64,000 bases of DNA from an uncultured delta proteobacterium (lineage in GTDB: Bacteria; Desulfobacterota; Desulfobaccia; Desulfobaccales; 0-14-0-80-60-11): the NCBI GenBank assembly GCA_963812655.1, contig CAWEWX010000077.1, positions 18,660 to 82,659 on the forward strand, written 5' to 3'. A program made the position numbers and the translations under genes. Below the pieces are notes generated by a model. That model did no database searches. It worked only from the letters and a program-made list of their open reading frames with translations, and was not told where the DNA came from. Shown in pieces: positions 5,059 to 58,660 of this stretch. Each line of letters opens with the position of its first letter. Positions within the stretch are counted from its first letter, which is position 1.

Positions 5059-5186
5059 CAAATGGGCCCGCTTAAGGAAAGGGGCGGGGGGTCTCCAGGT
5101 GAGCCCGCGGAGGGCACGGGCGAAAAATAGTTTTCTCTGAAAATTCAATATTTGCTGAAGGAATTCCGGAGCCGTACTTTTCTTAG

Positions 5187-5689: not shown

Positions 5690-5805
5690 AAGATTCTCCG
5701 CAAAAAATCTTTAACGCAGACACCCGGAGGGGCAGGTCGGTTTCTGGTTTTCCGTTGTCCGTTTTTTATTAGAAACTCGCCCAGGAGCGATAGGCGGCAC
5801 AACAT

Positions 5806-5995
5806 TGCGTGAAGAAACTAAACATCTCCAGGTTAAATCAGCATTGTAATTTCAACGATATCAACATATTATACCGATGTAACCAAATCTCTCCCCACGG
5901 GAGAGGAAAAAACTGTAAATTCCACGAATGATAGCTATTGGGCATGCCTAAGTCAAACATATCTCACAAAAGCAAAAACCTTGCCGGACACAATG
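5806..5995. repeat. dispersed intergenic repeat, family A, short copy
   Basis: Shares both flanks with 46630-46912: TGAAGAAACT(T)AAAC(T)ATCTC...CATTGTAATTTCAACGATATCAA...CCAAATC...GGGCATGCCTAAGT(C)CAAACATATCTC...AGCAAAAACCTT(G/T)CCGGACAC. The core is a single small hairpin CTCTCC-n5-GGAGAG. Confidence 0.8.
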
Positions 5996-12715: not shown

Positions 12716-13269
12716 CCCCAACCCAAATCCCCTTTGGCAGAGAGATGAGACACGGCGGTGCAAAAATCCGGGCGCCGGCCGGGACTTCGCTAGCCGGCCC
12801 CATCCTGTTTTTTTTACCACATATTCAGGATAATTATTTCATTATCCCGGCCGCCGCGCAAATTAGGTTAATCGATTATCCCTTAAACCCGGCAAACAAC
12901 GAATTACTATCTTGACATTGTAGTAGTTGAAATGTAATCACCGCTCATTCGCAATGGGGGCCTGACTTAACTCCCTCCCCCTGGAGGGGGGAGGGTTGGG
13001 GAGGGGGTGGCGTGATCTTGGCTGTATGTCAGATACTCGCCACCCTCCCCCTAACCCCCTCTCCTCAAGGGAGGGGGAATTTTATACTTCGGTCTGCAAT
13101 CGTTTGCTTTCACTCTGCACCGTTATCAATCGTTGGGAGGTCGAAACCAGGGTAATACAAATTAGGTTATACTTATACTGTGGCGTTCCACTGTCAGGTT
13201 TTGGTGGGCCGCGCCCACCCCACATTCAGGCTCACCGGGCCTTGGCTCGAGATATCTTTGGAGTATCTC

Positions 13270-14310
13270 ATGGAAGAGCAGGTACGACGCACTTTGAAGC
13301 TCATCTCAGGAGAGGACCTGGCCGCCAGCGTCCCTCCCGGCACTCAGGCCGGCCCCGGGGAGGGCTCGGACCTGGAACTCCTGGACGCCTACTCCCGGGC
13401 CATCGTCAAGGTGGTGGAGGAGGTGGGTCCCGCGGTGGTGGGCATCACCACCGGCAGCCCGTCGCCCCGGCAGGCGGCGGAGCAGGCCGGGGCCGGCTCG
13501 GGGGTCCTCATCGCCCCGGATGGCTATATCCTCACCAACGACCACGTGGTGGCCCAGGCCCGGCTCCTCCAGGCCACCCTGGAAGACGGCCGCACCCTGG
13601 CCGGCGAGATCGTCGGCACCGACCCCGCCACCGACCTGGCGGTGATTCGGGTAAACGCCGCGGGCCTGCCTTTTGCCAGCCTGGGGGACTCCGCGGCCCT
13701 GCGGGTGGGCCAGGTGGTCATCGCCATCGGCAACCCCTTCGGCTTCCAGTCCACTGTCTCCACCGGGGTGGTGAGCGCCCTGGGCCGGGCCTTGCGGAGC
13801 CGCGCCGGCCGCCTCATCGAGAATATCATCCAGCACTCCGCCCCCCTCAACCCGGGCAACTCCGGGGGGCCGTTGGTCGATTCCCGGGGCCGGGTGGTGG
13901 GGGTCAACACCGCCATCATCATGATGGCCCAGGGCATCGGGTTCGCCATCCCGGCCAATACCGCCAAGTGGGTGGTGTCCCAACTGCTTACCCACGGCCG
14001 GGTGCGCCGGGGCTACCTGGGACTGGTGGCCCGGCAGCGGCCCCTGGAGCGCCGGCTGGTGCGCTTTCACCGCCTGAGCGCCGAATCGGCAGTGGAGGCC
14101 ATCTCGGTGGACCCCCAGGGACCGGCGGCCCAGGCCGGTTTCCGGGAGGGCGACCTCGTCGTCTCCATCAACGGCCAACCTTTGCTCAGCGTGGACGACC
14201 TGCACCGTTTCCTGGCCGAGTGGCCCATCGGCGAGCCGGTGACCCTCACCGTCATCCGGGGCCTGGAACGCCAGGACCTGCGGGTGCGCCCCCGGGAGGC
14301 CAAAGCCTAG
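13270..14310 (+). CDS. S1C (HtrA/DegP-like) serine protease with PDZ domain, no signal peptide, copy 1
   Basis: Triad contexts TNDHVV, DLAVIRV and GNSGGPL, with a C-terminal PDZ-like region (GDLVVSINGQP). GGAG lies 6 nt before ATG 13270. The N-terminus MEEQVRRTLKLISGEDLAAS has no hydrophobic segment. Confidence 0.85.
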   Translation: MEEQVRRTLKLISGEDLAASVPPGTQAGPGEGSDLELLDAYSRAIVKVVEEVGPAVVGITTGSPSPRQAAEQAGAGSGVLIAPDGYILTNDHVVAQARLLQATLEDGRTLAGEIVGTDPATDLAVIRVNAAGLPFASLGDSAALRVGQVVIAIGNPFGFQSTVSTGVVSALGRALRSRAGRLIENIIQHSAPLNPGNSGGPLVDSRGRVVGVNTAIIMMAQGIGFAIPANTAKWVVSQLLTHGRVRRGYLGLVARQRPLERRLVRFHRLSAESAVEAISVDPQGPAAQAGFREGDLVVSINGQPLLSVDDLHRFLAEWPIGEPVTLTVIRGLERQDLRVRPREAKA

Positions 14311-14314
14311 AATA

Positions 14315-14363
14315 CAGGGGTCAGGGGCCAGGGGCCAGGGATTAGGGATTAGGGATTAGGGTC
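14315..14363 (+). repeat. heptanucleotide array / G-quadruplex-capable tract
   Basis: CAGGGGT CAGGGGC CAGGGGC CAGGGAT TAGGGAT TAGGGAT TAGGGTC. Seven in-phase 7-mers give seven G3-4 runs separated by 3-4 nt. Starts 4 nt after the protease-1 stop and is absent from the equivalent spacer of copy 2. Confidence 0.85.
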
Positions 14364-14437
14364 TCTGCCCTGCGGGAACGGGGATGTCTCCAAGGTGGGG
14401 CCGGCCCGCCCTGCCGGGGCAGCTTTAAGGTTTCTCA

Positions 14438-14480
14438 TTGTCTTTTGCGCCGCAGTTCAAGTAAGATCAAACAAGATCTT
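14438..14480 (+). promoter_or_regulatory. candidate radA promoter plus palindrome (copy 1)
   Basis: TTGTCT, 18 nt spacer, TAAGAT (14438-14467), overlapped by the inverted repeat AAGATC-n6-GATCTT (14463-14480). Conserved in copy 2 while the upstream spacer is not. Confidence 0.4.
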
Positions 14481-14526
14481 TTGTTGGGCATCACCAATCT
14501 CAGCTCTCCAAGGACGCCTAGCCCCC

Positions 14527-15987
14527 ATGTCCCGGGCCGGAAGACCGGTGTTTGTCTGCCAGCAGTGCGGCTACCAGGCGGCCAAATGGCTGGGGCGTTG
14601 CCCCGAATGCGGCGCCTGGAGCTCCATGGCCGAAGAGGAAATAGCCCCCGTGGCCCCCGGCCTGGCGCAATTGCCTCCCCGGCGCGGCCAGCCCCTGCCC
14701 CTGCTTAGCCTGCAGGCGGCCCCGGAGGTGCGCCGGATCTCCGGCATCCAGGAGTTCGACCGCACCCTGGGAGGCGCGGTGATCCAGGGTTCCGTGGTGC
14801 TGCTGGGCGGCGACCCGGGGATCGGCAAATCGACCCTCATCCTCCAGGTCCTGGACCGGCTCAGCCGGGGAGGCCTGGTCGGCCTCTACATTTCCGGGGA
14901 GGAGTCCGAAGCCCAGCTCAAACTCCGGGCCAATCGCCTGGGCCTCACCTCCGGCGACCTGCTGGTGGCCACCGAGACCTGCCTGGAAAACATCCTCAAG
15001 ATAGTGGAAGAGGTCCGGCCCGCCTTCCTGGCCCTCGATTCCATCCAGACCATGTACACCGCCACTATTCCTGCGGCCCCCGGCTCCCTGAACCAGGTCA
15101 GGGAGACGGCCTTTCGGCTGGTGCAGCAGGCCAAACTCACCGGGGTCGCCACCTTTCTCATCGGCCATGTCACCAAGGAAGGCGCCATCGCCGGCCCCAT
15201 GACCCTGGAACACCTGGTGGACACGGTCCTCTACCTGGAAGGGGACCGCAGCCACGCCTTCCGGCTGCTGCGCACCGTGAAGAACCGCTTCGGCCCCACC
15301 CAGGAACTGGGGGTCTTTGAGATGCAGGAGGCCGGCCTCCTGGAGGTGGACAACCCCTCGGGCCTTTTCATGGCGGAGCGGTCCCTGGAGGTCCCCGGCG
15401 CCGCGGTGGTCCCCAGCCTTGAGGGCTCCCGCCCCATCCTGGTGGAGGTCCAGGCCCTGGTGTCCCCCTCCTCCCTGGCCCTGCCCCGCCGCCAAAGCAT
15501 GGGAGTGGACCCGGGAAGGGTGTCGCTGCTGGTGGCCATCCTGGAAAAGCGGGTGGGACTGGGCCTGAGCGGCCAGGATCTCTTTGTCAACGTGGCCGGC
15601 GGGGTCCGCCTCACCGAACCGGCCGCGGACCTGGGGATCTCCCTGGCCGTGGCCTCCTCCTTTCTGGAGCGGGCGCTGCCCGCGGACACCCTGATCTTCG
15701 GAGAAGTGGGCCTCACCGGCGAGATCCGGGCGGTGAGCGCCCCGGAAGTACGCCTCAAGGAAGGGCATAAGCTGGGGTTCCGCCGGGCCCTCCTGGCCCT
15801 GCGCCAAAAAGAGCGCCTGGGGGACTTCCCCGGGCTAATGTTAAAAATAATAATTATTATATATACTGTGGCGGTCAGCTGTCAGGTTTTGGTGGGCAGC
15901 GCCACCTACATTAAGACTCACCGGGCCTTGGCTCGATGGATATATCTTTGGAGTATCTCATGGAAGAGCAGGTGCGACGCACTTTGA
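14527..15987 (+). CDS. radA: DNA repair protein RadA/Sms, copy 1, with a chimeric 49-aa C-terminal tail
   Basis: Zn finger CQQCGYQ...CPECG, Walker A GGDPGIGKST, KNRFG motif, Lon-like C domain. After ...RLGDFPGL the frame runs into the duplication junction (MLKIIIIIYTVAVSCQ...). The terminal 18 aa seen in copy 2 are missing. Confidence 0.8.
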   Translation: MSRAGRPVFVCQQCGYQAAKWLGRCPECGAWSSMAEEEIAPVAPGLAQLPPRRGQPLPLLSLQAAPEVRRISGIQEFDRTLGGAVIQGSVVLLGGDPGIGKSTLILQVLDRLSRGGLVGLYISGEESEAQLKLRANRLGLTSGDLLVATETCLENILKIVEEVRPAFLALDSIQTMYTATIPAAPGSLNQVRETAFRLVQQAKLTGVATFLIGHVTKEGAIAGPMTLEHLVDTVLYLEGDRSHAFRLLRTVKNRFGPTQELGVFEMQEAGLLEVDNPSGLFMAERSLEVPGAAVVPSLEGSRPILVEVQALVSPSSLALPRRQSMGVDPGRVSLLVAILEKRVGLGLSGQDLFVNVAGGVRLTEPAADLGISLAVASSFLERALPADTLIFGEVGLTGEIRAVSAPEVRLKEGHKLGFRRALLALRQKERLGDFPGLMLKIIIIIYTVAVSCQVLVGSATYIKTHRALARWIYLWSISWKSRCDAL

Positions 15988-17000
15988 ACCTCATCTCAGG
16001 CGAGGACCTGGCCGCCAGCGTCCCTCCCGGCACTCAGGCCGGCCCCGGGGAGGGCTCGGACCTGGAACTCCTGGACGCCTACTCCCGGGCCATCGTCAAG
16101 GTGGTGGAGGAGGTGGGTCCCGCGGTGGTGGGCATCACCACCGGCAGCCCGTCGCCCCGGCAGGCGGCGGAGCAGGCCGGGGCCGGCTCGGGGGTCCTCA
16201 TCGCCCCGGATGGCTATATCCTCACCAACGACCACGTGGTGGCCCAGGCCCGGCTCCTCCAGGCCACCCTGGAAGACGGCCGCACCCTGGCCGGCGAGAT
16301 CGTCGGCGCCGACCCCGCCACCGACCTGGCGGTGATTCGGGTAAACGCCGCGGGCCTGCCTTTTGCCAGCCTGGGGGACTCCGCGGCCCTGCGGGTGGGC
16401 CAGGTGGTCATCGCCATCGGCAACCCCTTCGGCTTCCAGTCCACTGTCTCCACCGGGGTGGTGAGCGCCCTGGGCCGGGCCTTGCGGAGCCGCGGCGGCC
16501 GCCTCATCGAGAATATCATCCAGCACTCCGCCCCCCTCAACCCGGGCAACTCCGGGGGGCCGTTGGTGGATTCTCGGGGCCGGGTGGTGGGGATCAACAC
16601 CGCCATCATCATGATGGCCCAGGGCATCGGGTTCGCCATCCCGGCCAACACCGGCAAGTGGGTGGTGTCCCAACTGCTCACCCAAGGCCGGGTGCGCCGG
16701 GGCTACCTGGGACTGGTGGCCCGGCAGCGGCCCCTGGAGCGCCGGCTGGTGCGCTTTCACCGCCTGAGCGCCGAATCCGCAGTGGAGGCCATCTCGGTGG
16801 ACCCCCAGGGACCGGCGGCCCAGGCCGGTTTCCGGGAAGGCGACCTCGTCGTCTCCATCGACGGCCAACCTTTGCTCAGCGTGGATGACCTGCACCGTTT
16901 CCTGGCCGAGTGGCCCATCGGCGAGCCGGTGACCCTCACCGTCATCCGGGGCCTGGAACGCCTGGACCTGCGGGTGCGGCCCCGGGAGGCCAAGGCCTGA
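15960..17000 (+). CDS. S1C (HtrA/DegP-like) serine protease with PDZ domain, no signal peptide, copy 2
   Basis: Differs from copy 1 at about 20 nt by eye, giving 8 aa changes (K/N, T/A, A/G, V/I, A/G, H/Q, N/D, Q/L); the remainder are synonymous. Stop is TGA instead of TAG. Same RBS and intact triad. Confidence 0.85.
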   Translation: MEEQVRRTLNLISGEDLAASVPPGTQAGPGEGSDLELLDAYSRAIVKVVEEVGPAVVGITTGSPSPRQAAEQAGAGSGVLIAPDGYILTNDHVVAQARLLQATLEDGRTLAGEIVGADPATDLAVIRVNAAGLPFASLGDSAALRVGQVVIAIGNPFGFQSTVSTGVVSALGRALRSRGGRLIENIIQHSAPLNPGNSGGPLVDSRGRVVGINTAIIMMAQGIGFAIPANTGKWVVSQLLTQGRVRRGYLGLVARQRPLERRLVRFHRLSAESAVEAISVDPQGPAAQAGFREGDLVVSIDGQPLLSVDDLHRFLAEWPIGEPVTLTVIRGLERLDLRVRPREAKA

Positions 17001-17134
17001 GGATGTTGAACCGCTCCGCCCGCGGCGGTTCATTCCCCCGCAGCCTGACCATCTCCCCCAGGCGGGAGCAGGGATAGCTTTAAGGCGGGGGGGGCCACCG
17101 GGCCGCCCTGCGCCAGCAGGTCCAAGGTTTCTCA

Positions 17135-17177
17135 TTGTCTTTTGCGCCGCAGATCAAGTAAGATCAAAAAAGATCTT
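17135..17177 (+). promoter_or_regulatory. candidate radA promoter plus palindrome (copy 2)
   Basis: TTGTCT, 18 nt spacer, TAAGAT, then AAGATC-AAAAAA-GATCTT. Homologous to 14438-14480. Confidence 0.4.
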
Positions 17178-17223
17178 TTGTTGGGCATCGCCAATCTCAG
17201 CTCTCCAAGGACGCCATCACCCC

Positions 17224-18591
17224 ATGTCCCGAGCCGGAAGACCGGTGTTTGTCTGCCAGCAGTGCGGCCACCAGGCGGCCAAATGGCTGGGGCGCTGCCC
17301 CGAGTGCGGCGCCTGGAGTTCCATGGCCGAAGAGGATATGACCCCCGTGGCCCCGGGCCTGGCACAACTGCCTCCCCGGCGCGGCCAGCCCCTGCCCCTG
17401 CTTAACATGCAGGCGGCCCCGGAGGTGCGCCGGACCTCTGGCATCCAGGAGTTCGACCGCACCCTGGGAGGCGCGGTGGTCCAGGGTTCCGTGGTGCTGC
17501 TGGGCGGCGACCCGGGGATCGGAAAATCGACCCTCATCCTCCAGGTCCTGGATCGGCTCAGTCGGGGAGGCCTGGTCGGCCTCTACATTTCCGGGGAAGA
17601 GTCCGAAGCCCAGCTCAAACTCCGGGCCAATCGCCTGGGCCTCACCTCGAGCGACCTGCTGGTGGCCACCGAGACCTGCCTGGAAAACATCCTCAAGATA
17701 GTGGAAGAGGTCCGGCCCGCCTTCCTGGCCCTGGATTCCATCCAGACCATGTACACCGCCACTATCCCCGCGGCCCCCGGCTCCCTGAACCAGGTAAGAG
17801 AGACGGCCTTTCGGCTGGTGCAGCAGGCCAAACTCACCGGGGTCGCCACCTTTCTCATCGGCCATGTCACCAAGGAAGGCGCCATCGCCGGCCCCATGAC
17901 CCTGGAACACCTGGTGGACACGGTCCTCTACCTGGAAGGGGACCGCAGCCACGCCTTCCGGCTGCTGCGCACCGTGAAGAACCGCTTCGGCCCCACCCAG
18001 GAACTGGGGGTCTTTGAGATGCAGGAGGCCGGCCTCCTGGAGGTGGACAACCCCTCGGGCCTTTTCATGGCGGAACGTTCCCTGGAGGTCCCCGGCGCCG
18101 CGGTGGTCCCCAACCTGGAAGGCTCCCGCCCCATCCTGGTGGAGGTCCAGGCCCTGGTGTCCCCCTCCTCCCTGGCCCTGCCCCGCCGCCAGAGCATGGG
18201 GGTGGACCCGGGGAGGGTGTCGCTGCTGGTAGCCATCCTGGAAAAGCGGGTGGGCCTGGCCCTGAGCGGCCAAGATCTCTTCGTCAACGTGGCGGGCGGG
18301 GTCCGCCTCACCGAACCGGCCGCGGACCTGGGGGTCTCCCTGGCCGTGGCCTCCTCCTTCCTGGAGCGGGCGCTGCCCGCGGACACCCTGGTCTTCGGAG
18401 AAGTGGGCCTCACCGGCGAGATCCGGGCGGTGAGCGCCCCGGAAGTGCGCCTCAAGGAAGGCGCCAAACTGGGGTTCCGCCGGGCCCTCCTGGCCCTGCG
18501 CCAAAAAGAGCGCCTGGGGGACTACCCCGGGCTGGAACTCCTGGGGGTGGAAACCCTGGCCGCGGCCATAAGGAGCTTGTTCCCGAAATGA
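17224..18591 (+). CDS. radA: DNA repair protein RadA/Sms, copy 2 (full length)
   Basis: 455 aa with all RadA motifs and a normal C-terminus (...GDYPGLELLGVETLAAAIRSLFPK). About 15 aa differences from copy 1 over the 437 shared residues. Confidence 0.9.
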   Translation: MSRAGRPVFVCQQCGHQAAKWLGRCPECGAWSSMAEEDMTPVAPGLAQLPPRRGQPLPLLNMQAAPEVRRTSGIQEFDRTLGGAVVQGSVVLLGGDPGIGKSTLILQVLDRLSRGGLVGLYISGEESEAQLKLRANRLGLTSSDLLVATETCLENILKIVEEVRPAFLALDSIQTMYTATIPAAPGSLNQVRETAFRLVQQAKLTGVATFLIGHVTKEGAIAGPMTLEHLVDTVLYLEGDRSHAFRLLRTVKNRFGPTQELGVFEMQEAGLLEVDNPSGLFMAERSLEVPGAAVVPNLEGSRPILVEVQALVSPSSLALPRRQSMGVDPGRVSLLVAILEKRVGLALSGQDLFVNVAGGVRLTEPAADLGVSLAVASSFLERALPADTLVFGEVGLTGEIRAVSAPEVRLKEGAKLGFRRALLALRQKERLGDYPGLELLGVETLAAAIRSLFPK

Positions 18592-18621
18592 TTTTTGAAT
18601 AAAATTTTAACGGAGGTCACT

Positions 18622-18975
18622 ATGGGATATCGTGGAGAAAAGATTTATATTAAAGTTTATTATAAGTTGATTAAAATTGCAGAAAAAGGTGAAACTATAA
18701 ATTATGGTAAAATTGGTGATATGATGAGTTTGCCACAAGGACAATATATGGGTCAACAAGTGGGTATTATATGCGATGAAATTAATAATGATGAACATAT
18801 TAATGGGAGGCCAATGCTTAGTGCAGTTGTGATCAGAAAAGATTGGGAAATGCCTGGAGATGGTTTTTTTGAATGTGCAAAAAGTTTAAGAAAGTTTGAT
18901 GGAAATACCGAAAGGGAAAAAAGAATATTTTGGCAAAATGAAATTAAAAAGGTTTATAAAGAGTGGCAAGATTGA
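18622..18975 (+). CDS. hypothetical protein encoded by a strongly AT-rich islet (117 aa)
   Basis: GGAGG lies 5 nt before ATG 18622. Codons are overwhelmingly A/T-ending, in sharp contrast to the flanks. The segment INYGKIGDMM...GRPMLSAVVIRKDWEMPGDGFF loosely resembles MGMT/ATL-type winged-helix DNA-binding domains, without the active Cys. That similarity is a weak impression only. Confidence 0.6.
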   Translation: MGYRGEKIYIKVYYKLIKIAEKGETINYGKIGDMMSLPQGQYMGQQVGIICDEINNDEHINGRPMLSAVVIRKDWEMPGDGFFECAKSLRKFDGNTEREKRIFWQNEIKKVYKEWQD

Positions 18976-19084
18976 TTATATTTCTGAGGACATTTTGCAA
19001 AATATAAAACGCGCTCGATAACTTTTCCTGCAACCCTTGACTTTGGTGCCCGGCGACCAAAATAAATATCGAGGAGCGATAGCC

Positions 19085-21877: not shown

Positions 21878-23254
21878 ATGACAAACATTTGGGAAGCGGT
21901 CAAAGAGGTAATCAAGGACGAAATACCCTCCTCCACCTACCACCTGTGGATCGAGCCCCTCCAGGTGGAAAACGGTCCCGGAGGCGAACTGCTGCTGGCC
22001 TGCCCCAATCCTTTTTCCCTGAGATGGGTCCAGGGCCATTATCTGCCGCTAATCCGGCAGGCCCTGGCAAACCTGGGACAGACGCCGGCCGCGGTGGCTT
22101 TGAAGTTGCTCAACCCCCCTCCCCGACCGCAGGCGTTGCCGCGGCCGACCCAGCCGGCCTTCCCCCAGATAGCGCCGCCAACCCTCCGGAGCGGTCTTAA
22201 TCAGGCCTTCACCTTTGATAAATTCGTGGTCGGGGCCTCCAACCGCCTGGCCTATCAGGCTTCCCGGGCCCTGGCCAGGAATGACACCTTTTATAACCAT
22301 CTCCTGTTCATCACCTCCAGCCCTGGTCTGGGCAAGAGCCATCTGTCCCAGGCCATGGGCAACTTTATCAGCCAGACGGCCGGTGGCGGCAGGGTCATGT
22401 ATCTCACCGCGGAGAGTTTCACCAACCAAATGGTAAGGGCCTTGAAAAGCGGGCAGATGGCCGATTTCAAGGAGCGCTTCCGCCGCGACTGCGACATTCT
22501 GCTCCTGGAAGAGGTCCAGTTTTTAAGCGGCAAAGAGAAGATTCAGGCGGAAGTGTGCTACACCCTGGACACCCTCCTGAGCCGCCGCAAACGGCTGGTC
22601 TTCACCAGTTGTTATCTCCCGGGGGAGATCAGCCACCTCTCCCAAGAACTCCGCTCCCGGCTCACCGGCGGGGTCATTACCCCCATCGGCCCTCCGGACT
22701 TCCCCACCCGGGTGAATATCCTGGCCAAAAAGGCCGAGAGCCGTGGAGTGCAAGTCTCGGTGAAGATCCTGGAATACCTGGCGGAATACGTCAGCGGCGA
22801 CGTGCGCCGCCTGGAGAGCGCCCTGGACTGCCTGCTGGCCCGGGCGTCCTTGCTCAATCAGACCTTCAACCCGTCCATGGCCCGGGAGGTCCTCCAGGAC
22901 TTGCAGGCGGTGGCCCGCCGTCTGAACATTCCGGAGATCCAAAAGATTGTCTGCGACTATTATGGGGTAAGCCTGGCGGAACTCTTGGGGCGTTCCCGCC
23001 AGAAGCGGCTGGTGCGGGCCCGGCAGCTAGGTTTTTATTTCGGCCGCCTCTATACGGAAAAGACGCTGGCGGAGTTGGGGCTCCTCTTTCAGAGGACCCA
23101 CGCCACCGTGGTGCACGCCTTGCAAACCCTGGAGCGGGAACGCAAGACCAATCAACGCCTGGCCCAGGAAGTGCAGCTACTGGAGCAAAAGTTGGCCCAG
23201 GCCCAAGTCAGGTGGGGGTCGAAGCCAGCATCCACTCTTCGCACTGATGCTTGA
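21878..23254 (+). CDS. dnaA: chromosomal replication initiator DnaA
   Basis: N-terminal MTNIWEAVKEVIKDEI...LWIEPL, AAA+ Walker A SSPGLGKSHL, LLLEEVQFL, C-terminal DNA-binding helix (RARQLGFYF...THATVVHA). Confidence 0.95.
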   Translation: MTNIWEAVKEVIKDEIPSSTYHLWIEPLQVENGPGGELLLACPNPFSLRWVQGHYLPLIRQALANLGQTPAAVALKLLNPPPRPQALPRPTQPAFPQIAPPTLRSGLNQAFTFDKFVVGASNRLAYQASRALARNDTFYNHLLFITSSPGLGKSHLSQAMGNFISQTAGGGRVMYLTAESFTNQMVRALKSGQMADFKERFRRDCDILLLEEVQFLSGKEKIQAEVCYTLDTLLSRRKRLVFTSCYLPGEISHLSQELRSRLTGGVITPIGPPDFPTRVNILAKKAESRGVQVSVKILEYLAEYVSGDVRRLESALDCLLARASLLNQTFNPSMAREVLQDLQAVARRLNIPEIQKIVCDYYGVSLAELLGRSRQKRLVRARQLGFYFGRLYTEKTLAELGLLFQRTHATVVHALQTLERERKTNQRLAQEVQLLEQKLAQAQVRWGSKPASTLRTDA

Positions 23255-25164: not shown

Positions 25165-25328
25165 ATTGTGATGCCCCACGATTACCTTAACAAAAGATTT
25201 GAGATAACACCCCCTCCCTTGAGGGGATGGGGTTGGGGGGAGGGTGGCAACATATAGTAAAGGAAAGAAAAATTACCACCCCCACCCTGACCCTCCCCCC
25301 TCAAGGGGGAGGGAAATAAGCAAAGCAT

Positions 25329-26090
25329 TTATGCAACATTTCCTTGGGACGCAATACTAGTTACCCTGCCTCTGGTCCGGCGGACCCACCAGGGGCACGA
25401 AGCGCACCCGCAAGCGCTCTCCTCCTTAAGCTCCCCCCGCACCTTGCGTAGCCGCACCAGGGTTTGGTCCCAGCCCCCCTCCCCCAGGGGGACAACCAGG
25501 CGGCCCCCCTCCTTGAGCTGTTCGCTCAGGGCCGGCGGCACCCAGGGAGCCGCGGCGGTGACCAGGATGGCGTCGAAGGGGGCTGCCTCGGGCCATCCCT
25601 TCCAGCCGTCCCCGGTTTTTACCCGAACCTGGCGATAGCCCAGCTCCTGCAGACGGACCGCGGCGGTCCGGGCCAGCTCCGGCCTGATCTCCACGCTGAA
25701 GACCTGAGCGGCGAGTTCCCCCAGGACCGCGGCCTGGTAGCCCGAACCGGTCCCCACCTCCAAAACTTTATCGCCGGGGCGCACCGCGGCCCATTGGCTC
25801 ATCAGGGCGACGATGTAAGGCTGGGAGATGGTCTGGTCCTGGCCGATGGGGAGGGGGTGGTCCCCGTACGCCTGGGAGTCCAGGGCCGGCGGTACAAAGA
25901 GGTGCCGCGGCACCTTACCCATGGCCGCCAACACCCGGGGGTCGGTAATCCCCCGGCTCAGAAGCTGCCGGGCCACCATGGCGCGGCGAGCCTCGTCCTG
26001 GTCCGGGAGGCCCTGGCAGGCCCCGGGAAGCAGCCCCGCCGCCAGCAGCGCCAGGGAGAACCAGCAGATCAGGACCAGCTTCCGGCTCAT
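25329..26090 (-). CDS. pcm: protein-L-isoaspartate O-methyltransferase paralog with N-terminal signal/anchor peptide; 3' end apparently frameshifted
   Basis: [25 protein letters not shown] is followed by the canonical Pcm core ([26 protein letters not shown]). The canonical C-terminus [10 protein letters not shown] is encoded in another frame from about 25413-25427, stopping at 25357. Confidence 0.8.
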
Positions 26091-29663: not shown

Positions 29664-29740
29664 CTCGTTAATTTCAATCGCCTCTAAGGTCTGTAAGCCT
29701 TCTCACCCGCGTTGATATCAGGCACCGGACCAAGAAGCCG

Positions 29741-29940
29741 GTTTCATAAATCCGGGAACGTATTTATTAACCGCGGGAGCAAGTGGTTAATTCCCCCTCA
29801 CCCTAACCCTCTCCCCCATCGGGGGAGAGGGGATAAAGAGCCACCGCTTGGAAAGCTCCCTCTCCCCCCGCCGGGGGGAGAGGGCTGGGGTGAGGGGTGG
29901 CAACAAGAAAGGTTACCATACTTAAGAAATCAAATACTAA
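29741..29940. repeat. dispersed composite hairpin repeat, family B, copy 1
   Basis: About 200 nt aligning with 56327-56529 in the same orientation (roughly 85-90% by eye). Structure: TTTCATAAATCCGG...AACCGCGGGAGCAAGTG.TTAATT, then CCCCTCACCCTAACCCTCTCCCCC-n4-GGGGGAGAGGGG ... CTCTCCCCCC-n4-GGGGGGAGAGGGCTGGGGTGAGGGG, then ...TTAAGAAATCAA.TACTAA. Confidence 0.85.
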
Positions 29941-39574: not shown

Positions 39575-40249
39575 TCAATCTGATCCGACCTCCACCTCCC
39601 CGCCGTCCCAGCCATATTTGCCGATAAGACGCACGAAGCGGCAGCCGCCGTGGTATTCGTACTGCAACCCCTCCCCGGTCTGGCGCACGCAGGTCAGGGT
39701 TTGGGTGAACCTGTCCCCCACCGGAATCACCAGCCGTCCCCCCACGGCCAGTTGCTCCACCAGGGGCCTGGGGACCTGCGGGGCCCCGGCGGTGACTATG
39801 ATGCCGTCGAAGGGGGCCTCCTCCGGCCAGCCCAGGGTGCCGTCCCCCACCCGGATGCGAATGTTCCGGTAACCCAAGGAATCCAAGATCGATTGGGCTT
39901 GATCCGCCAGGCCGCCCCTGCGGTCGATGCTGAAGACCGCGGCGGCCAACTCCGCCAGGACCGCCGCCTGGTAGCCGGAGCCGGTGCCCACCTCCAGGAC
40001 CCGGTCCGTCTCCTGGAGCCCCAGGATCTCGGTCATGAGGCCCACGATGTACGGCTGGGAGATGGTCTGGTCTTCCCCGATGGGCAGGGGATAGTCACCG
40101 TAGGCCTGGCTCCAGAGAGGCTCAGGGATAAAGCGGTGCCGGGGCACCTGGCGCAGCGCGGCCAGCACCCGGGGGTCGGCCACCCCCCGGGCCCGGATTT
40201 GCTCTGCCACCATGCGGTCCCGGACCGCGGCAAATTGATCCTCGGGCAT
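39575..40249 (-). CDS. pcm: protein-L-isoaspartate O-methyltransferase (cytoplasmic paralog)
   Basis: [34 protein letters not shown] and the canonical end CRFVRLIG. No signal peptide. Confidence 0.9.
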   Translation of the reverse strand: MPEDQFAAVRDRMVAEQIRARGVADPRVLAALRQVPRHRFIPEPLWSQAYGDYPLPIGEDQTISQPYIVGLMTEILGLQETDRVLEVGTGSGYQAAVLAELAAAVFSIDRRGGLADQAQSILDSLGYRNIRIRVGDGTLGWPEEAPFDGIIVTAGAPQVPRPLVEQLAVGGRLVIPVGDRFTQTLTCVRQTGEGLQYEYHGGCRFVRLIGKYGWDGGEVEVGSD

Positions 40250-46585: not shown

Positions 46586-46629
46586 TTTTCTTTGAGGGTG
46601 CTCAGGACAATAGCGTCCGGCAACAAAAT

Positions 46630-46912
46630 CGCATGAAGAAACTTAAACTATCTCGCAGGTTGAATCTATCCCATTGTAATTTCAACGATATCAAGATATT
46701 ACCCCGATCCAACCAAATCCCCTCTCCCCTGCGAGGGGACGACACCGGGTGAGGGGTGGCTTCATCGGCCGTTCCATACCCCCCTCACCCTGCCCTCTCC
46801 CCCCCAAGGGGGGAGAGGGAAATAGCTTGTAAAGTCCATGAATTGATTAGCTAGTGGGCATGCCTAAGTCCAAACATATCTCTACAATAGCAAAAACCTT
46901 TCCGGACACTAA
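46630..46912. repeat. dispersed intergenic repeat, family A, long copy with nested hairpin module
   Basis: Flanks match 5806-5995. The core is expanded by about 95 nt of CTCTCCCCTGCGAGGGGA / GGGTGAGGGGTGG ... CCCCCCTCACCCTGCCCTCTCCCCCCCAAGGGGGGAGAGGG, the same module type as family B. Confidence 0.8.
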
Positions 46913-47020
46913 TGTACTCAGGAGGCATTCGGGGCGAGGCCAGGCGCGGCCAGGCCAGCCCCGGTCAACCAGTCTGGCGGATCTGACGCCGGCAAAAGCC
47001 CGCGGCTGCCGATGCGAACC

Positions 47021-49500: not shown

Positions 49501-51209
49501 CAGGCGTGGCCCTCCAGACCCCGCAGGATATATTCCGGGGTAAAGGGAGCGCCGTCGTACCTGAGGACCAGATGATCGGCGGCGATCCCGGTCTCCTGGC
49601 GCAGCAGGCGGTCAGCCTGGCCGGTGGCGTTCATCTCCACCATCACCAGCTTGTGGGCGCCTTTTAAGGCCGTGGCCAGCGCCCTCGCCGGGAAGGGCCA
49701 CAGTTCGCTGAGGTGCACCATGCGGGCCGGGGCGCCGGCCTCATTCAGCCGGGCCACCGCTTCCGTCACCGGCCCCAGGCTGGAGCCCCAGCAGACCAGG
49801 GCCAGGGGGGCCGCCGCCGGGCCGGAGGTGGAGATGCCATTGAGCTCGCGCCCCAGTTTTTTCAATTTGCGCAGCCGCTTGTCGTGCATCTGCACCCGGA
49901 CCCGCAGGTCTTCGGTGAGGTGGCCGTCCGGGGTGTGCTCGTCGGAGTCGGCCACCACCAGTTCCGGCCCGAAACCCGGCAGGCGCCGGGGCGAAACGCC
50001 GTCGGCGGTGATGGCGTAGCGCTCGTAGACCGCCGCGGCCGGCCCCAGCTTCAGGGCTCGCTGGATCTCCACCTTCTCGGGAAAATCACCGGCCTCATGG
50101 GTGAAGTTGACGTCGGCAAGGTATTGATCGGTGAGGAGAAAGACCGGCAACTGATAGCGCTCCGCCAGATTGAAGGCCCGGGCCGCCAGGGCGAAGCTCT
50201 GGGCCGGAGTGCCCGGGGCCAGCACCGCCCGGGGAAAATCCCCCTGCCCGGCATAAAGGACGAAGCTCAGGTCACCCTGCTCGGTGCGGGTGGGCAACCC
50301 GGTGCTGGGGCCAGGGCGTTGGGCCTCCACGATGACCAGAGGCGTCTCGCTGCACCCCGCCAGTCCCAGGGTTTCAACCATCAGGGAAAAACCGCCCCCG
50401 GAGGAGCCGGTCATGGCCCGGACCCCGGCAAATGAGGCCCCCAGGGCCAGGTTAATGGCGGCGATTTCGTCTTCCGCCTGCTCCACCACCACCCCCCAGC
50501 GGGCGGCCCGTTGCCCCACGGCGTTGAGGACGCTGCTCCACGGGGTCATGGGATAGCCGCTGATAAATTGCAGGCCCGCGGCCAGGGCTCCCAGGGCCAG
50601 GGCCTCATGGCCGCTGATCAGGAGACGGGGCCCCGGCGGCGGGGTGATCCCCGCCAGGGAGTGGCCGGGGCCCAAGGCCGCCCCCAGCCTATAACCGGCG
50701 GCGGCGGCCCGGTGGTTCCAACCCACCACCTCGGCGCCCTTGCCGGCAAACGCCTCCAGGAGCAGACCCATCAGGGGCTCCAGGGGAACCTGGAACAGCC
50801 CCAGGATGGCGCCACCGGCGCCGGCGTTGACCGCGATCTCCGCGGCCTGTTTCTCCGCCAGCAGGGTGGCCGGCTCCAGGGGAAGCTTCAGCCCCCGGGC
50901 GGGCAAGTCCCGGACCTGGGAGGCATCATAGATGATGACCCCATCCGGGGCCAGTTCCCCCTGGTGCAGGTGGACGGTTTCCTGGTTCAAGGCCACCAGC
51001 AGGTCCACCCCTTCCCGGGAGGAGATCAGGGGCGCATCCGCCACCCGGATGCGGTTGAAGAGATGGCCGCCGCGGATGCGGGACTCATAGGACTGCACGA
51101 ACAGCACCTGACAGCCCTGGCGCACCAGGGTCTTGGCCAGGGGGGTAGTGATGGCATGCACCCCCTGCCCTGCCGCCCCACCGATCAAGATATTGAAATC
51201 AATGGCCAT
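49500..51209 (-). CDS. 2-oxoacid:ferredoxin oxidoreductase, fused gamma/alpha subunit
   Basis: N-terminal gamma-like domain (ILIGGAAGQGV, SYESRIRGG) followed by the alpha domain (GYPMTPWS, EDEIAAINLALGAS). The stop abuts the beta subunit start. Confidence 0.9.
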   Translation of the reverse strand: MAIDFNILIGGAAGQGVHAITTPLAKTLVRQGCQVLFVQSYESRIRGGHLFNRIRVADAPLISSREGVDLLVALNQETVHLHQGELAPDGVIIYDASQVRDLPARGLKLPLEPATLLAEKQAAEIAVNAGAGGAILGLFQVPLEPLMGLLLEAFAGKGAEVVGWNHRAAAAGYRLGAALGPGHSLAGITPPPGPRLLISGHEALALGALAAGLQFISGYPMTPWSSVLNAVGQRAARWGVVVEQAEDEIAAINLALGASFAGVRAMTGSSGGGFSLMVETLGLAGCSETPLVIVEAQRPGPSTGLPTRTEQGDLSFVLYAGQGDFPRAVLAPGTPAQSFALAARAFNLAERYQLPVFLLTDQYLADVNFTHEAGDFPEKVEIQRALKLGPAAAVYERYAITADGVSPRRLPGFGPELVVADSDEHTPDGHLTEDLRVRVQMHDKRLRKLKKLGRELNGISTSGPAAAPLALVCWGSSLGPVTEAVARLNEAGAPARMVHLSELWPFPARALATALKGAHKLVMVEMNATGQADRLLRQETGIAADHLVLRYDGAPFTPEYILRGLEGHA

Positions 51210-56261: not shown

Positions 56262-56326
56262 GGGCGCACACTTGGGTGCGCTCCTACAGTCGGCTTCTGC
56301 CTGAGAGCATAATCCCTGAGTACCCG

Positions 56327-56529
56327 ATTTCATAAATCCGGTAACGTATTATTAACCGCGGGAGCAAGTGATTAATTCCCCCTCACCCTAACCCTCTCCC
56401 CCTCGAGGGGGAGAGGGGATAAAGTGCCAAGGCTTAAAATGCTCCCTCTCCCCCCGGTGGGGGGAGAGGGCTGGGGTGAGGGGGGGGGGTGACAAGAAAC
56501 ATTACCATATTTAAGAAATCAAGTACTAA
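56327..56529. repeat. dispersed composite hairpin repeat, family B, copy 2
   Basis: Aligns with 29741-29940 in the same orientation. Contains a G9 run at about 56472-56480. Confidence 0.85.
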
Positions 56530-58480: not shown

Positions 58481-58603
58481 GCCAAGTCCTCCTTGAGGTG
58501 CAGTTACCAGTTTCTGCCAGTTGCCAGGGTAGGCAGGGGTTCCTGGGAATTGTCAGCTATTACACCCAAGTTTCGCACCAAGTATGAATGGGAGTGGAAA
58601 AGA

Positions 58604-58660
58604 GATTAAATTCCCCCTCACCCTTGCCCTCTCCCCCTCGAGAGGGAGAGGGGATAAAGA
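58604..58660. repeat. half copy of family B repeat
   Basis: GATTAAATTCCCCCTCACCCTTGCCCTCTCCCCCTCGAGAGGGAGAGGGGATAAAGA matches only the left hairpin module of 56360-56425. Confidence 0.7.

Follow-up and report, generated by a model that had tools for sequence, protein, structure and literature searches.

A 64-kb stretch of contig CAWEWX010000077.1, from the genome of an uncultured member of the Desulfobaccales and referred to below as the window, carries a direct duplication of about 2.69 kb in which the gene for an HtrA-like protease and most of the adjacent radA gene lie in two head-to-tail copies on the forward strand. Self-BLAST and a repeat search resolved two collinear direct-repeat blocks within the 64 kb, one pairing 13154–14308 with 15846–16998 (96.7% identity over 1159 nucleotides (nt)) and the other pairing 14401–15836 with 17098–18533 (95.5% over 1438 nt), and no second repeat of comparable length emerged from the self-BLAST of the window. 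The start codons are spaced as an earlier note on this DNA had recorded, with 2690 nt between the two protease ATGs (13270 and 15960) and 2697 nt between the two radA ATGs (14527 and 17224).

Apart from the duplication, the order of genes matches that of related genomes, where the single-copy locus reads CCA/poly(A) polymerase (− strand), protease, radA, an open reading frame (ORF) of 81 amino acids (aa), NamZ (−), GNAT (−) and dnaA. In the window, about 3.3 kb separates the duplication from dnaA (21878–23254) on its downstream side. Given this proximity, which the relatives share, the locus may adjoin a replication origin; the skew of guanine over cytosine (GC skew) at 2-kb resolution was not decisive.

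Alignment with the relatives and short BLAST searches of the junction place the firm left edge of homology at 13177 in copy 1 and 15865 in copy 2, the latter marked by an exact 22-nt match (15865–15886) to the leader of a relative, L003; a faint AT-rich similarity that runs from 13177 back to 13154 is doubtful. On the right the breakpoint falls inside radA, where copy-to-copy homology ends at 15836 and 18533. The repeat unit, delimited by self-BLAST, the alignment with relatives and the L003 match, accordingly occupies 13177–15836 in copy 1 (leader, protease, spacer and radA nt 1–1310) and 15865–18533 in copy 2, both on the forward strand, and the copies diverge by 2–4% over most of its length. 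What was duplicated is a protease gene with a 3′-truncated radA, not the two complete modules described in the earlier note.

Between the copies, a filler of 28 nt (15837–15864, forward strand, about 10% GC) links radA nt 1310 to the protease leader and contains a 14-nt palindrome, ATAATAATTATTAT, at 15847–15860. The filler occurs once in the window and has no match among 93 related loci, and in no relative is it the natural continuation of radA or the sequence that normally precedes the leader. The assembled sequence runs across the join free of Ns and gaps, and 13 kb or more separates the duplication from either end of the window. Two head-to-tail copies united by a novel junction sequence point to a tandem segmental duplication; its distinct junction and unique filler show that the assembler did not simply stutter over identical sequence, as had been argued before.

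Protease and RadA copies

Both protease genes (copy 1, 13270–14310; copy 2, 15960–17000; forward strand) encode 346 aa, comprising a trypsin-fold domain of the S1C (HtrA-like) type and a single C-terminal PDZ domain at residues 271–339, as assigned by alignment and by Pfam (Trypsin_2, PF13365, 1.6e-37; PDZ_6, PF17820, 1.9e-14; PF13180, 4.6e-13). Their coding sequences differ at 19 nt, 11 of them synonymous and 8 non-synonymous, the latter giving the 8 aa differences between the copies, and they end in different stop codons (TAG and TGA). The motifs NDHVV, DLAVIRV and GNSGGP are present in both, in agreement with the earlier note, and the catalytic triad of H92, D122 and S198 is invariant in 19 aligned family members. 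Both genes are intact. In copy 2, a 4-nt insertion of the type found in the relatives L010 and L003 gives rise to a further possible start codon, an ATG at 15936.

In its catalytic triad within a trypsin-fold domain followed by one PDZ domain, the window protease resembles the single-PDZ HtrA proteases DegS and cyanobacterial HhoA (MEROPS S1C). It differs from HtrA/DegP relatives in having no signal peptide or membrane anchor, and is predicted to be cytoplasmic. The absence of a signal peptide or transmembrane segment, already reported, holds whichever in-frame start is taken: for none of them does a hydrophobic stretch, as would be expected of an extracytoplasmic protein, precede the protease domain. 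The same is true of 117 full-length homologues (343–378 aa, 66–97% identity), whose N-terminal segments have a median maximum Kyte–Doolittle value of −0.03 in a 15-aa window and which span Thermodesulfobacteriota, Nitrospirota, Poribacteria and others. The missing export signal is thus a trait of a whole widespread family and is not special to this locus. The protease scored below the curated NCBIfam cutoff of every named HtrA equivalog (298 bits against 416 for the Do-family model TIGR02037, 267 against 450 for the HhoA family and 226 against 423 for DegS). Its best sequence matches in the PDB were DegP, DegQ, HhoA, AlgW and DegS (E = 1e-46 to 1e-58), and that search returned no solved structure from the family of 343–378 aa itself. 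To our knowledge, the characterised bacterial HtrA proteases are extracytoplasmic; judged by sequence, this family is an uncharacterised, probably cytoplasmic branch of S1C.

The two radA genes are less alike in their completeness. Copy 2 (17224–18591, forward strand) encodes a full-length protein of 455 aa, is orthologous to the single radA of the relatives and shares 98.2% nt identity with that of L006, a relative of the same species. Its product aligns end to end with RadA/Sms of Streptococcus pneumoniae (5LKM), with a C4 zinc ribbon, a RecA-like ATPase domain bearing the Walker A motif GDPGIGKST, the KNRFG motif and a Lon-like domain, and it scores 542 bits against TIGR00416 (cutoff 403) over profile positions 4–454. 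Translation of copy 1 (14527–15987, forward strand) gives 486 aa, of which residues 1–437 are shared with copy 2 apart from 15 aa differences, as counted earlier. Beyond them the frame reads through the filler into the leader of copy 2, yielding 49 unrelated codons that encode a partly hydrophobic tail; the gene thereby overlaps the first 28 nt of protease copy 2.

This tail takes the place of the terminal 18 residues, ELLGVETLAAAIRSLFPK, a segment that is near-invariant in 116 RadA homologues and that, by sequence alignment, corresponds to the C-terminal end of the 5LKM chain. RadA copy 1 consequently departs from RadA/Sms after profile position 435 (535 bits against TIGR00416, covering only positions 4–435 of 454) and lacks a complete Lon-like C-terminal domain. 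The earlier statement that all catalytic motifs are intact therefore stands for GDPGIGKST and KNRFG, which both RadA copies have, but passes over the loss of the last 18 residues in copy 1. With a near-invariant segment exchanged for a hydrophobic nonsense tail, the truncated RadA is probably impaired.

Between protease and radA the copies part company altogether. The earlier note had seen a remodelled spacer, and about 90 nt (14309–14400 compared with 16999–17097) are indeed not homologous between the copies. In copy 1 the variant part (14311–14400, forward strand, delimited by spacer comparison) consists of G-rich repeats, which stand in place of a hairpin found 3′ of the protease stop codon in copy 2 and in the relatives. 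They include a tandem motif at 14320–14361, (CAGGGGY)3 followed by three ATTAGGG-like heptamers, that was found once in the window and in none of 90 related loci; it could form a G-quadruplex on the coding strand.

Single-copy relatives and mosaic ancestry

The closest proteins to those of the window come from metagenome-assembled genomes (MAGs) of the Desulfobaccales. One protease and one radA are present on more than 30 related contigs, that is, on every contig that spans the locus: L001 (a 191-kb contig), the GTDB species representatives L004–L010, 24 contigs carrying P0258 (a close relative of the window protease) and L091–L093. They include the same-species relative L006, whose flanks are 95.7–96.6% identical to those of the window. 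The junction had no match in JGI metagenome contigs, searched with an exact 24-mer and with a degenerate gapped pattern, and the tail of RadA copy 1 was covered by none of the best 120 RadA matches in a collection of 5.8 billion protein clusters; the sole database protein that bears this tail, P0257, has exactly the sequence of the ORF in the window and was seen on a single contig of 141,889 nt, presumably that of the window itself. Exact look-ups of the window's proteins gave no match. Among the contigs and collections searched, the duplication is seen in this genome only. In L009 (6001–8770) the protease match ends at aa 316 and the radA match spans only aa 238–455, a pattern that hints at frameshifts or a deletion, perhaps artefacts of a long-read consensus.

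If the second copy had arisen from the first in place, the two should be each other's closest relatives, and in the diverged parts they never are. In neighbour-joining trees rooted with L001 and L008, copy 2 groups with L006 (bootstrap 87% in the protease tree and 78% in the radA tree) and copy 1 with L010 (56% and 87%, respectively); a clade of copy 1 and copy 2 appears neither in these trees nor among the 14 bootstrap splits of highest frequency that were listed per gene.

Site patterns followed along the unit divide it into three parts of differing ancestry. Across the leader and protease nt 1–42 (13176–13311 in copy 1), copy 1 is of the L006 type and copy 2 of the L010/L003 type, with informative sites 5:0 for the split (copy 1, L006 | copy 2, L010) and two indels, of 4 and 2 nt, common to copy 2 and the L010/L003 leaders. 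From protease nt 609 to the end of the gene, and on through the conserved spacer and radA, the assignment is reversed: copy 1 is of the L010 type and copy 2 of the L006 type, with informative sites 28:2 for (copy 1, L010 | copy 2, L006). This reversal of ancestry between the leader and the downstream part is significant (Fisher's exact test, p = 6.5e-5), and outside the middle tract the quartet site patterns contain zero sites that unite copy 1 with copy 2.

Protease nt 43–608 form that middle tract, mapped by site patterns to 13312–13877 in copy 1 and to its partner 16002–16567 in copy 2 (both forward strand), where both copies are of the L006 type. Here they differ at 2 of 566 nt (0.35%), against a distance of 1.2–1.6% to L006 in this stretch; copy 2 alone carries the two deviating nucleotides, each of which changes an amino acid (T117A and A179G).

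Read along the chromosome, a single inner tract of about 2.1 kb (about 13878–16001, forward strand; site patterns, quartets and neighbour-joining) has its ancestry on the L010/L003 side, across the deepest divide of the species group from L006. It holds the 3′ part of protease copy 1, spacer 1, the truncated radA, the junction, and the leader and first 42 coding nt of copy 2. Around it lies an L006-type backbone, made up of the flanks, the leader and 608 protease nt of copy 1, and protease copy 2 from nt 43 with spacer 2 and the complete radA.

Origin of the duplication

We interpret the locus as a recent, strain-specific tandem duplication of 2.69 kb and mosaic ancestry, made by recombination between lineages, and give this reading a probability of roughly 0.58. 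That the event would be recent follows from the middle tract, the part of the repeat that can be dated, in which the copies differ by 0.35% compared with 1.2–1.6% to L006; the single copy in L006 agrees with this. As to mechanism, the junction would have originated in an illegitimate join that left the 28-nt AT-rich filler, and a fragment bearing it, derived from a related lineage and formed either as a circle that popped out of a tandem duplication or by joining to itself, would then have integrated into the protease gene of the recipient by ‘ends-in’ homologous recombination. Repair of a gap from the recipient's own copy could account for the 566-nt tract that is near-identical in both copies. 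The outcome would be two intact, probably cytoplasmic HtrA-type proteases, one intact radA and one truncated radA.

‘Ends-in’ (Campbell-type) integration of a circular or gapped fragment underlies insertion-duplication mutagenesis in transformable bacteria and integrative transformation in yeast, and its product is a tandem duplication with the incoming DNA between the copies and an identical tract where a gap was repaired from the recipient. The window shows the same layout, with L006-type sequence, L010-type sequence carrying the junction and L006-type sequence in succession, and with the shared tract of 566 nt; it differs in having no vector backbone, the insert being homologous DNA of a related lineage with a 28-nt filler. 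This likeness is drawn from sequence ancestry alone. Spontaneous tandem segmental duplications, which in bacterial chromosomes are frequent, unstable and formed at short or absent homologies, offer a second comparison. They share with the window the head-to-tail layout, the disregard for gene boundaries, a junction without extended homology and the occurrence in a single strain, but fresh copies made in situ would be identical, whereas those of the window differ by 2–4% and track two lineages.

Several observations weigh against an inter-lineage duplication on one chromosome. Both the tandem array on a single molecule and the phasing of the mosaic depend on the assembled sequence alone. The donor lineage of the inner tract is hypothetical, as no sampled genome lies near it and the closest (L010, L003 and L091–L093) are 2.8–3.7% away. 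In raw distance copy 1 radA is slightly nearer to L006 (3.20%) than to L010 (3.66%), and its placement with L010 comes from the four-point condition, shared derived sites and the 87% bootstrap. Finally, two independent short-read MAG contigs of close relatives, L002 (at its position 1) and L003 (at its position 5169), end within the protease gene, near aa 93 and aa 251, respectively. Such breaks are weak evidence for a repeat or strain heterogeneity in those populations and hint that the locus is structurally polymorphic there; they could mean that the duplication is commoner than one would conclude from the intact contigs.

The most serious alternative, which we nonetheless consider unlikely, is that the mosaic is a product of assembly or consensus calling, in which two populations that occur together and differ by about 4% at this locus were combined. 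A duplication-bearing population might have supplied the inner tract while a more abundant, single-copy one set the outer parts and flanks, or the tandem layout might itself be a false ‘heterotype’ duplication of two haplotypes. Much of what we describe would fit: the divergence between the copies equals that between lineages, the switches in ancestry sit in near-identical tracts, where an assembler or polisher would swap strains, the contig of the window is of the MAG type, related populations are found together in one sample series, and the junction is in no other assembly examined. Merging two single-copy haplotypes, however, cannot join radA codon 437 to the leader through a unique filler, so that some real molecules must carry the junction. 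At 13 kb or more from the window ends the join is also no artefact of contig-end overlap, and it contains no Ns or gaps.

An inter-lineage duplication also accounts for the data better than an old tandem duplication made in situ, in which selection would have kept both protease–RadA modules as functional paralogues; this second alternative, which corresponds to the ‘maintained paralogous modules’ of the earlier note, we regard as very improbable. In its favour are the intact catalytic motifs of both copies, the breaks of the L002 and L003 contigs in the protease gene, as a repeat there would predict, and ratios of non-synonymous to synonymous substitution (dN/dS) between the copies of 0.28 for the protease and 0.16 for radA. 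Because the copies trace to different lineages, however, these values reflect ordinary divergence between lineages; they would mostly measure purifying selection on orthologues before they were united and be silent on maintenance after the duplication. Maintained paralogues would moreover have to be reconciled with copies that are not sisters outside the 566-nt tract, a copy 2 leader whose derived sites and indels are those of the L010/L003 leaders, single copies in all locus-spanning contigs of the relatives, a copy 1 radA truncated in a near-invariant segment, and a middle tract that differs by only 0.35%.

Two further histories of an in-situ duplication were rejected. Accelerated evolution of copy 1 after a recent event is contradicted by the many copy 1 alleles common to L010 and the outgroups, and by a distance from copy 1 to the outgroups that is not raised. 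An ancient duplication followed by differential collapse fits the radA pattern and fails on that of the leader: the L010/L003 leaders adjoin the left flank and should under such a history resemble the leader of copy 1, yet they match that of copy 2.

Protease–radA adjacency and neighbouring features

The earlier note had further taken the linkage and joint amplification of the two genes as a sign that they act as a unit. Under such a reading protease and RadA would form a functional pair, for example with the protease acting on or with the Lon-like domain, that was amplified for dosage; we think this more doubtful still than the maintenance of paralogues. Within one Desulfobaccales clade, all members have the two genes side by side in the same orientation, and the protease is predicted to be cytoplasmic, like RadA. 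The adjacency has a narrow range: among 80 GTDB species loci that encode this protease family, radA adjoins the protease only in the 7 closest (protease identity at least 86%), which share their neighbourhood, and of 52 loci in which protease identity was at most 75% and both flanks extended for 3 kb or more, none had radA within 6 kb. Clustering of the neighbouring ORFs in the 80 loci gave no recurrent partner gene for the protease; the largest cluster covered 9 loci, and the inspected clusters, that of radA included, came from close syntenic relatives. The survey of leaderless S1C-PDZ genes beside radA that had been proposed thus finds no conservation of adjacency beyond shared synteny and, because the whole neighbourhood of the clade is syntenic, the adjacency counts as one evolutionary event.

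The spacer likewise speaks against a pair. In the clade it ranges from 136 to 525 nt and is hypervariable, with unrelated insertions, while the hairpin after the protease stop is kept, with compensatory changes in L010, and a promoter-like motif resembling TTGTCT-N18-TAAGAT is conserved before radA. Spacer folds were not better than those of shuffled sequences, and a scan for consensus promoters and terminators did not rise above shuffles. The conserved features suggest that protease and radA may be separate transcription units. Unrelated insertions of 300–400 nt are carried by the spacers of L010 (7038–7563) and L005 (1785–2267), marking the intergenic region as an insertion hot spot across the clade.

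The duplication itself cuts radA and so ignores the boundary of any module. All this is evidence against a protease–RadA functional unit: the two genes were co-duplicated as neighbours, not as working partners; both belong to well-known families and owe their adjacency in one clade to common descent. Least probable of all is the scheme in which the protease would work with RadA in this clade, for instance by controlling turnover of RadA or its Lon-like ring, and the array would be retained because a double dose of protease and a new-tailed RadA alter recombination or repair near the replication origin in a selectable way.

Other insertions border the duplicated segment. Directly upstream of protease copy 1, an insertion of 299 nt (12859–13169) is bounded on both sides by perfect direct repeats of 12 nt, CAAATTAGGTTA (12859–12870 and 13158–13169), and holds imperfect inverted repeats of 44 nt (12969–13012 and 13038–13081), so that it looks like a miniature inverted-repeat transposable element (MITE) with a target-site duplication. 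A shorter form is present in L006 only, the insertion is absent from the other relatives, and a partial copy (77% identity) lies on the minus strand at 25210–25320. On the other side, directly 3′ of the radA copy 2 stop codon, an AT-rich island (18592–19012; 30% GC compared with 62.5% for the window) carries an ORF of 117 aa (18622–18975) that matched nothing in Pfam or NCBIfam. No related locus has the island, only about 80–150 nt occupying this position there, and it is probably a small foreign insertion.

Elsewhere in the window, ARAGORN called an 86-nt tRNA-Ile(TAT) at 50653–50738, possibly a false positive or an atypical tRNA; a scan of the whole window at Rfam gathering thresholds yielded no tRNA and no other RNA family. 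Dispersed short repeats of 75–92% identity (29738–29940, 56324–56529 and 58600–58659; 5795–5995 and 46618–46914; 25695–25956 and 39929–40190) may be MITE-like elements or paralogous gene segments.

For the protease family the window adds nothing specific, and the widespread, uncharacterised S1C-PDZ family of 343–378 aa without an export signal may merit a study of its own. The broader significance lies in how the locus came to hold two copies. The pattern suggests either that homologous DNA entered from a related lineage and was integrated as a duplication, or that strains were mixed in the consensus of a MAG. When tandem copies trace to different lineages, low dN/dS between them is no evidence that paralogues are being maintained. 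The window thus provides a tidy natural example, in an uncultivated relative of sulfate reducers, of a duplication whose ancestry can be read stretch by stretch against single-copy relatives.

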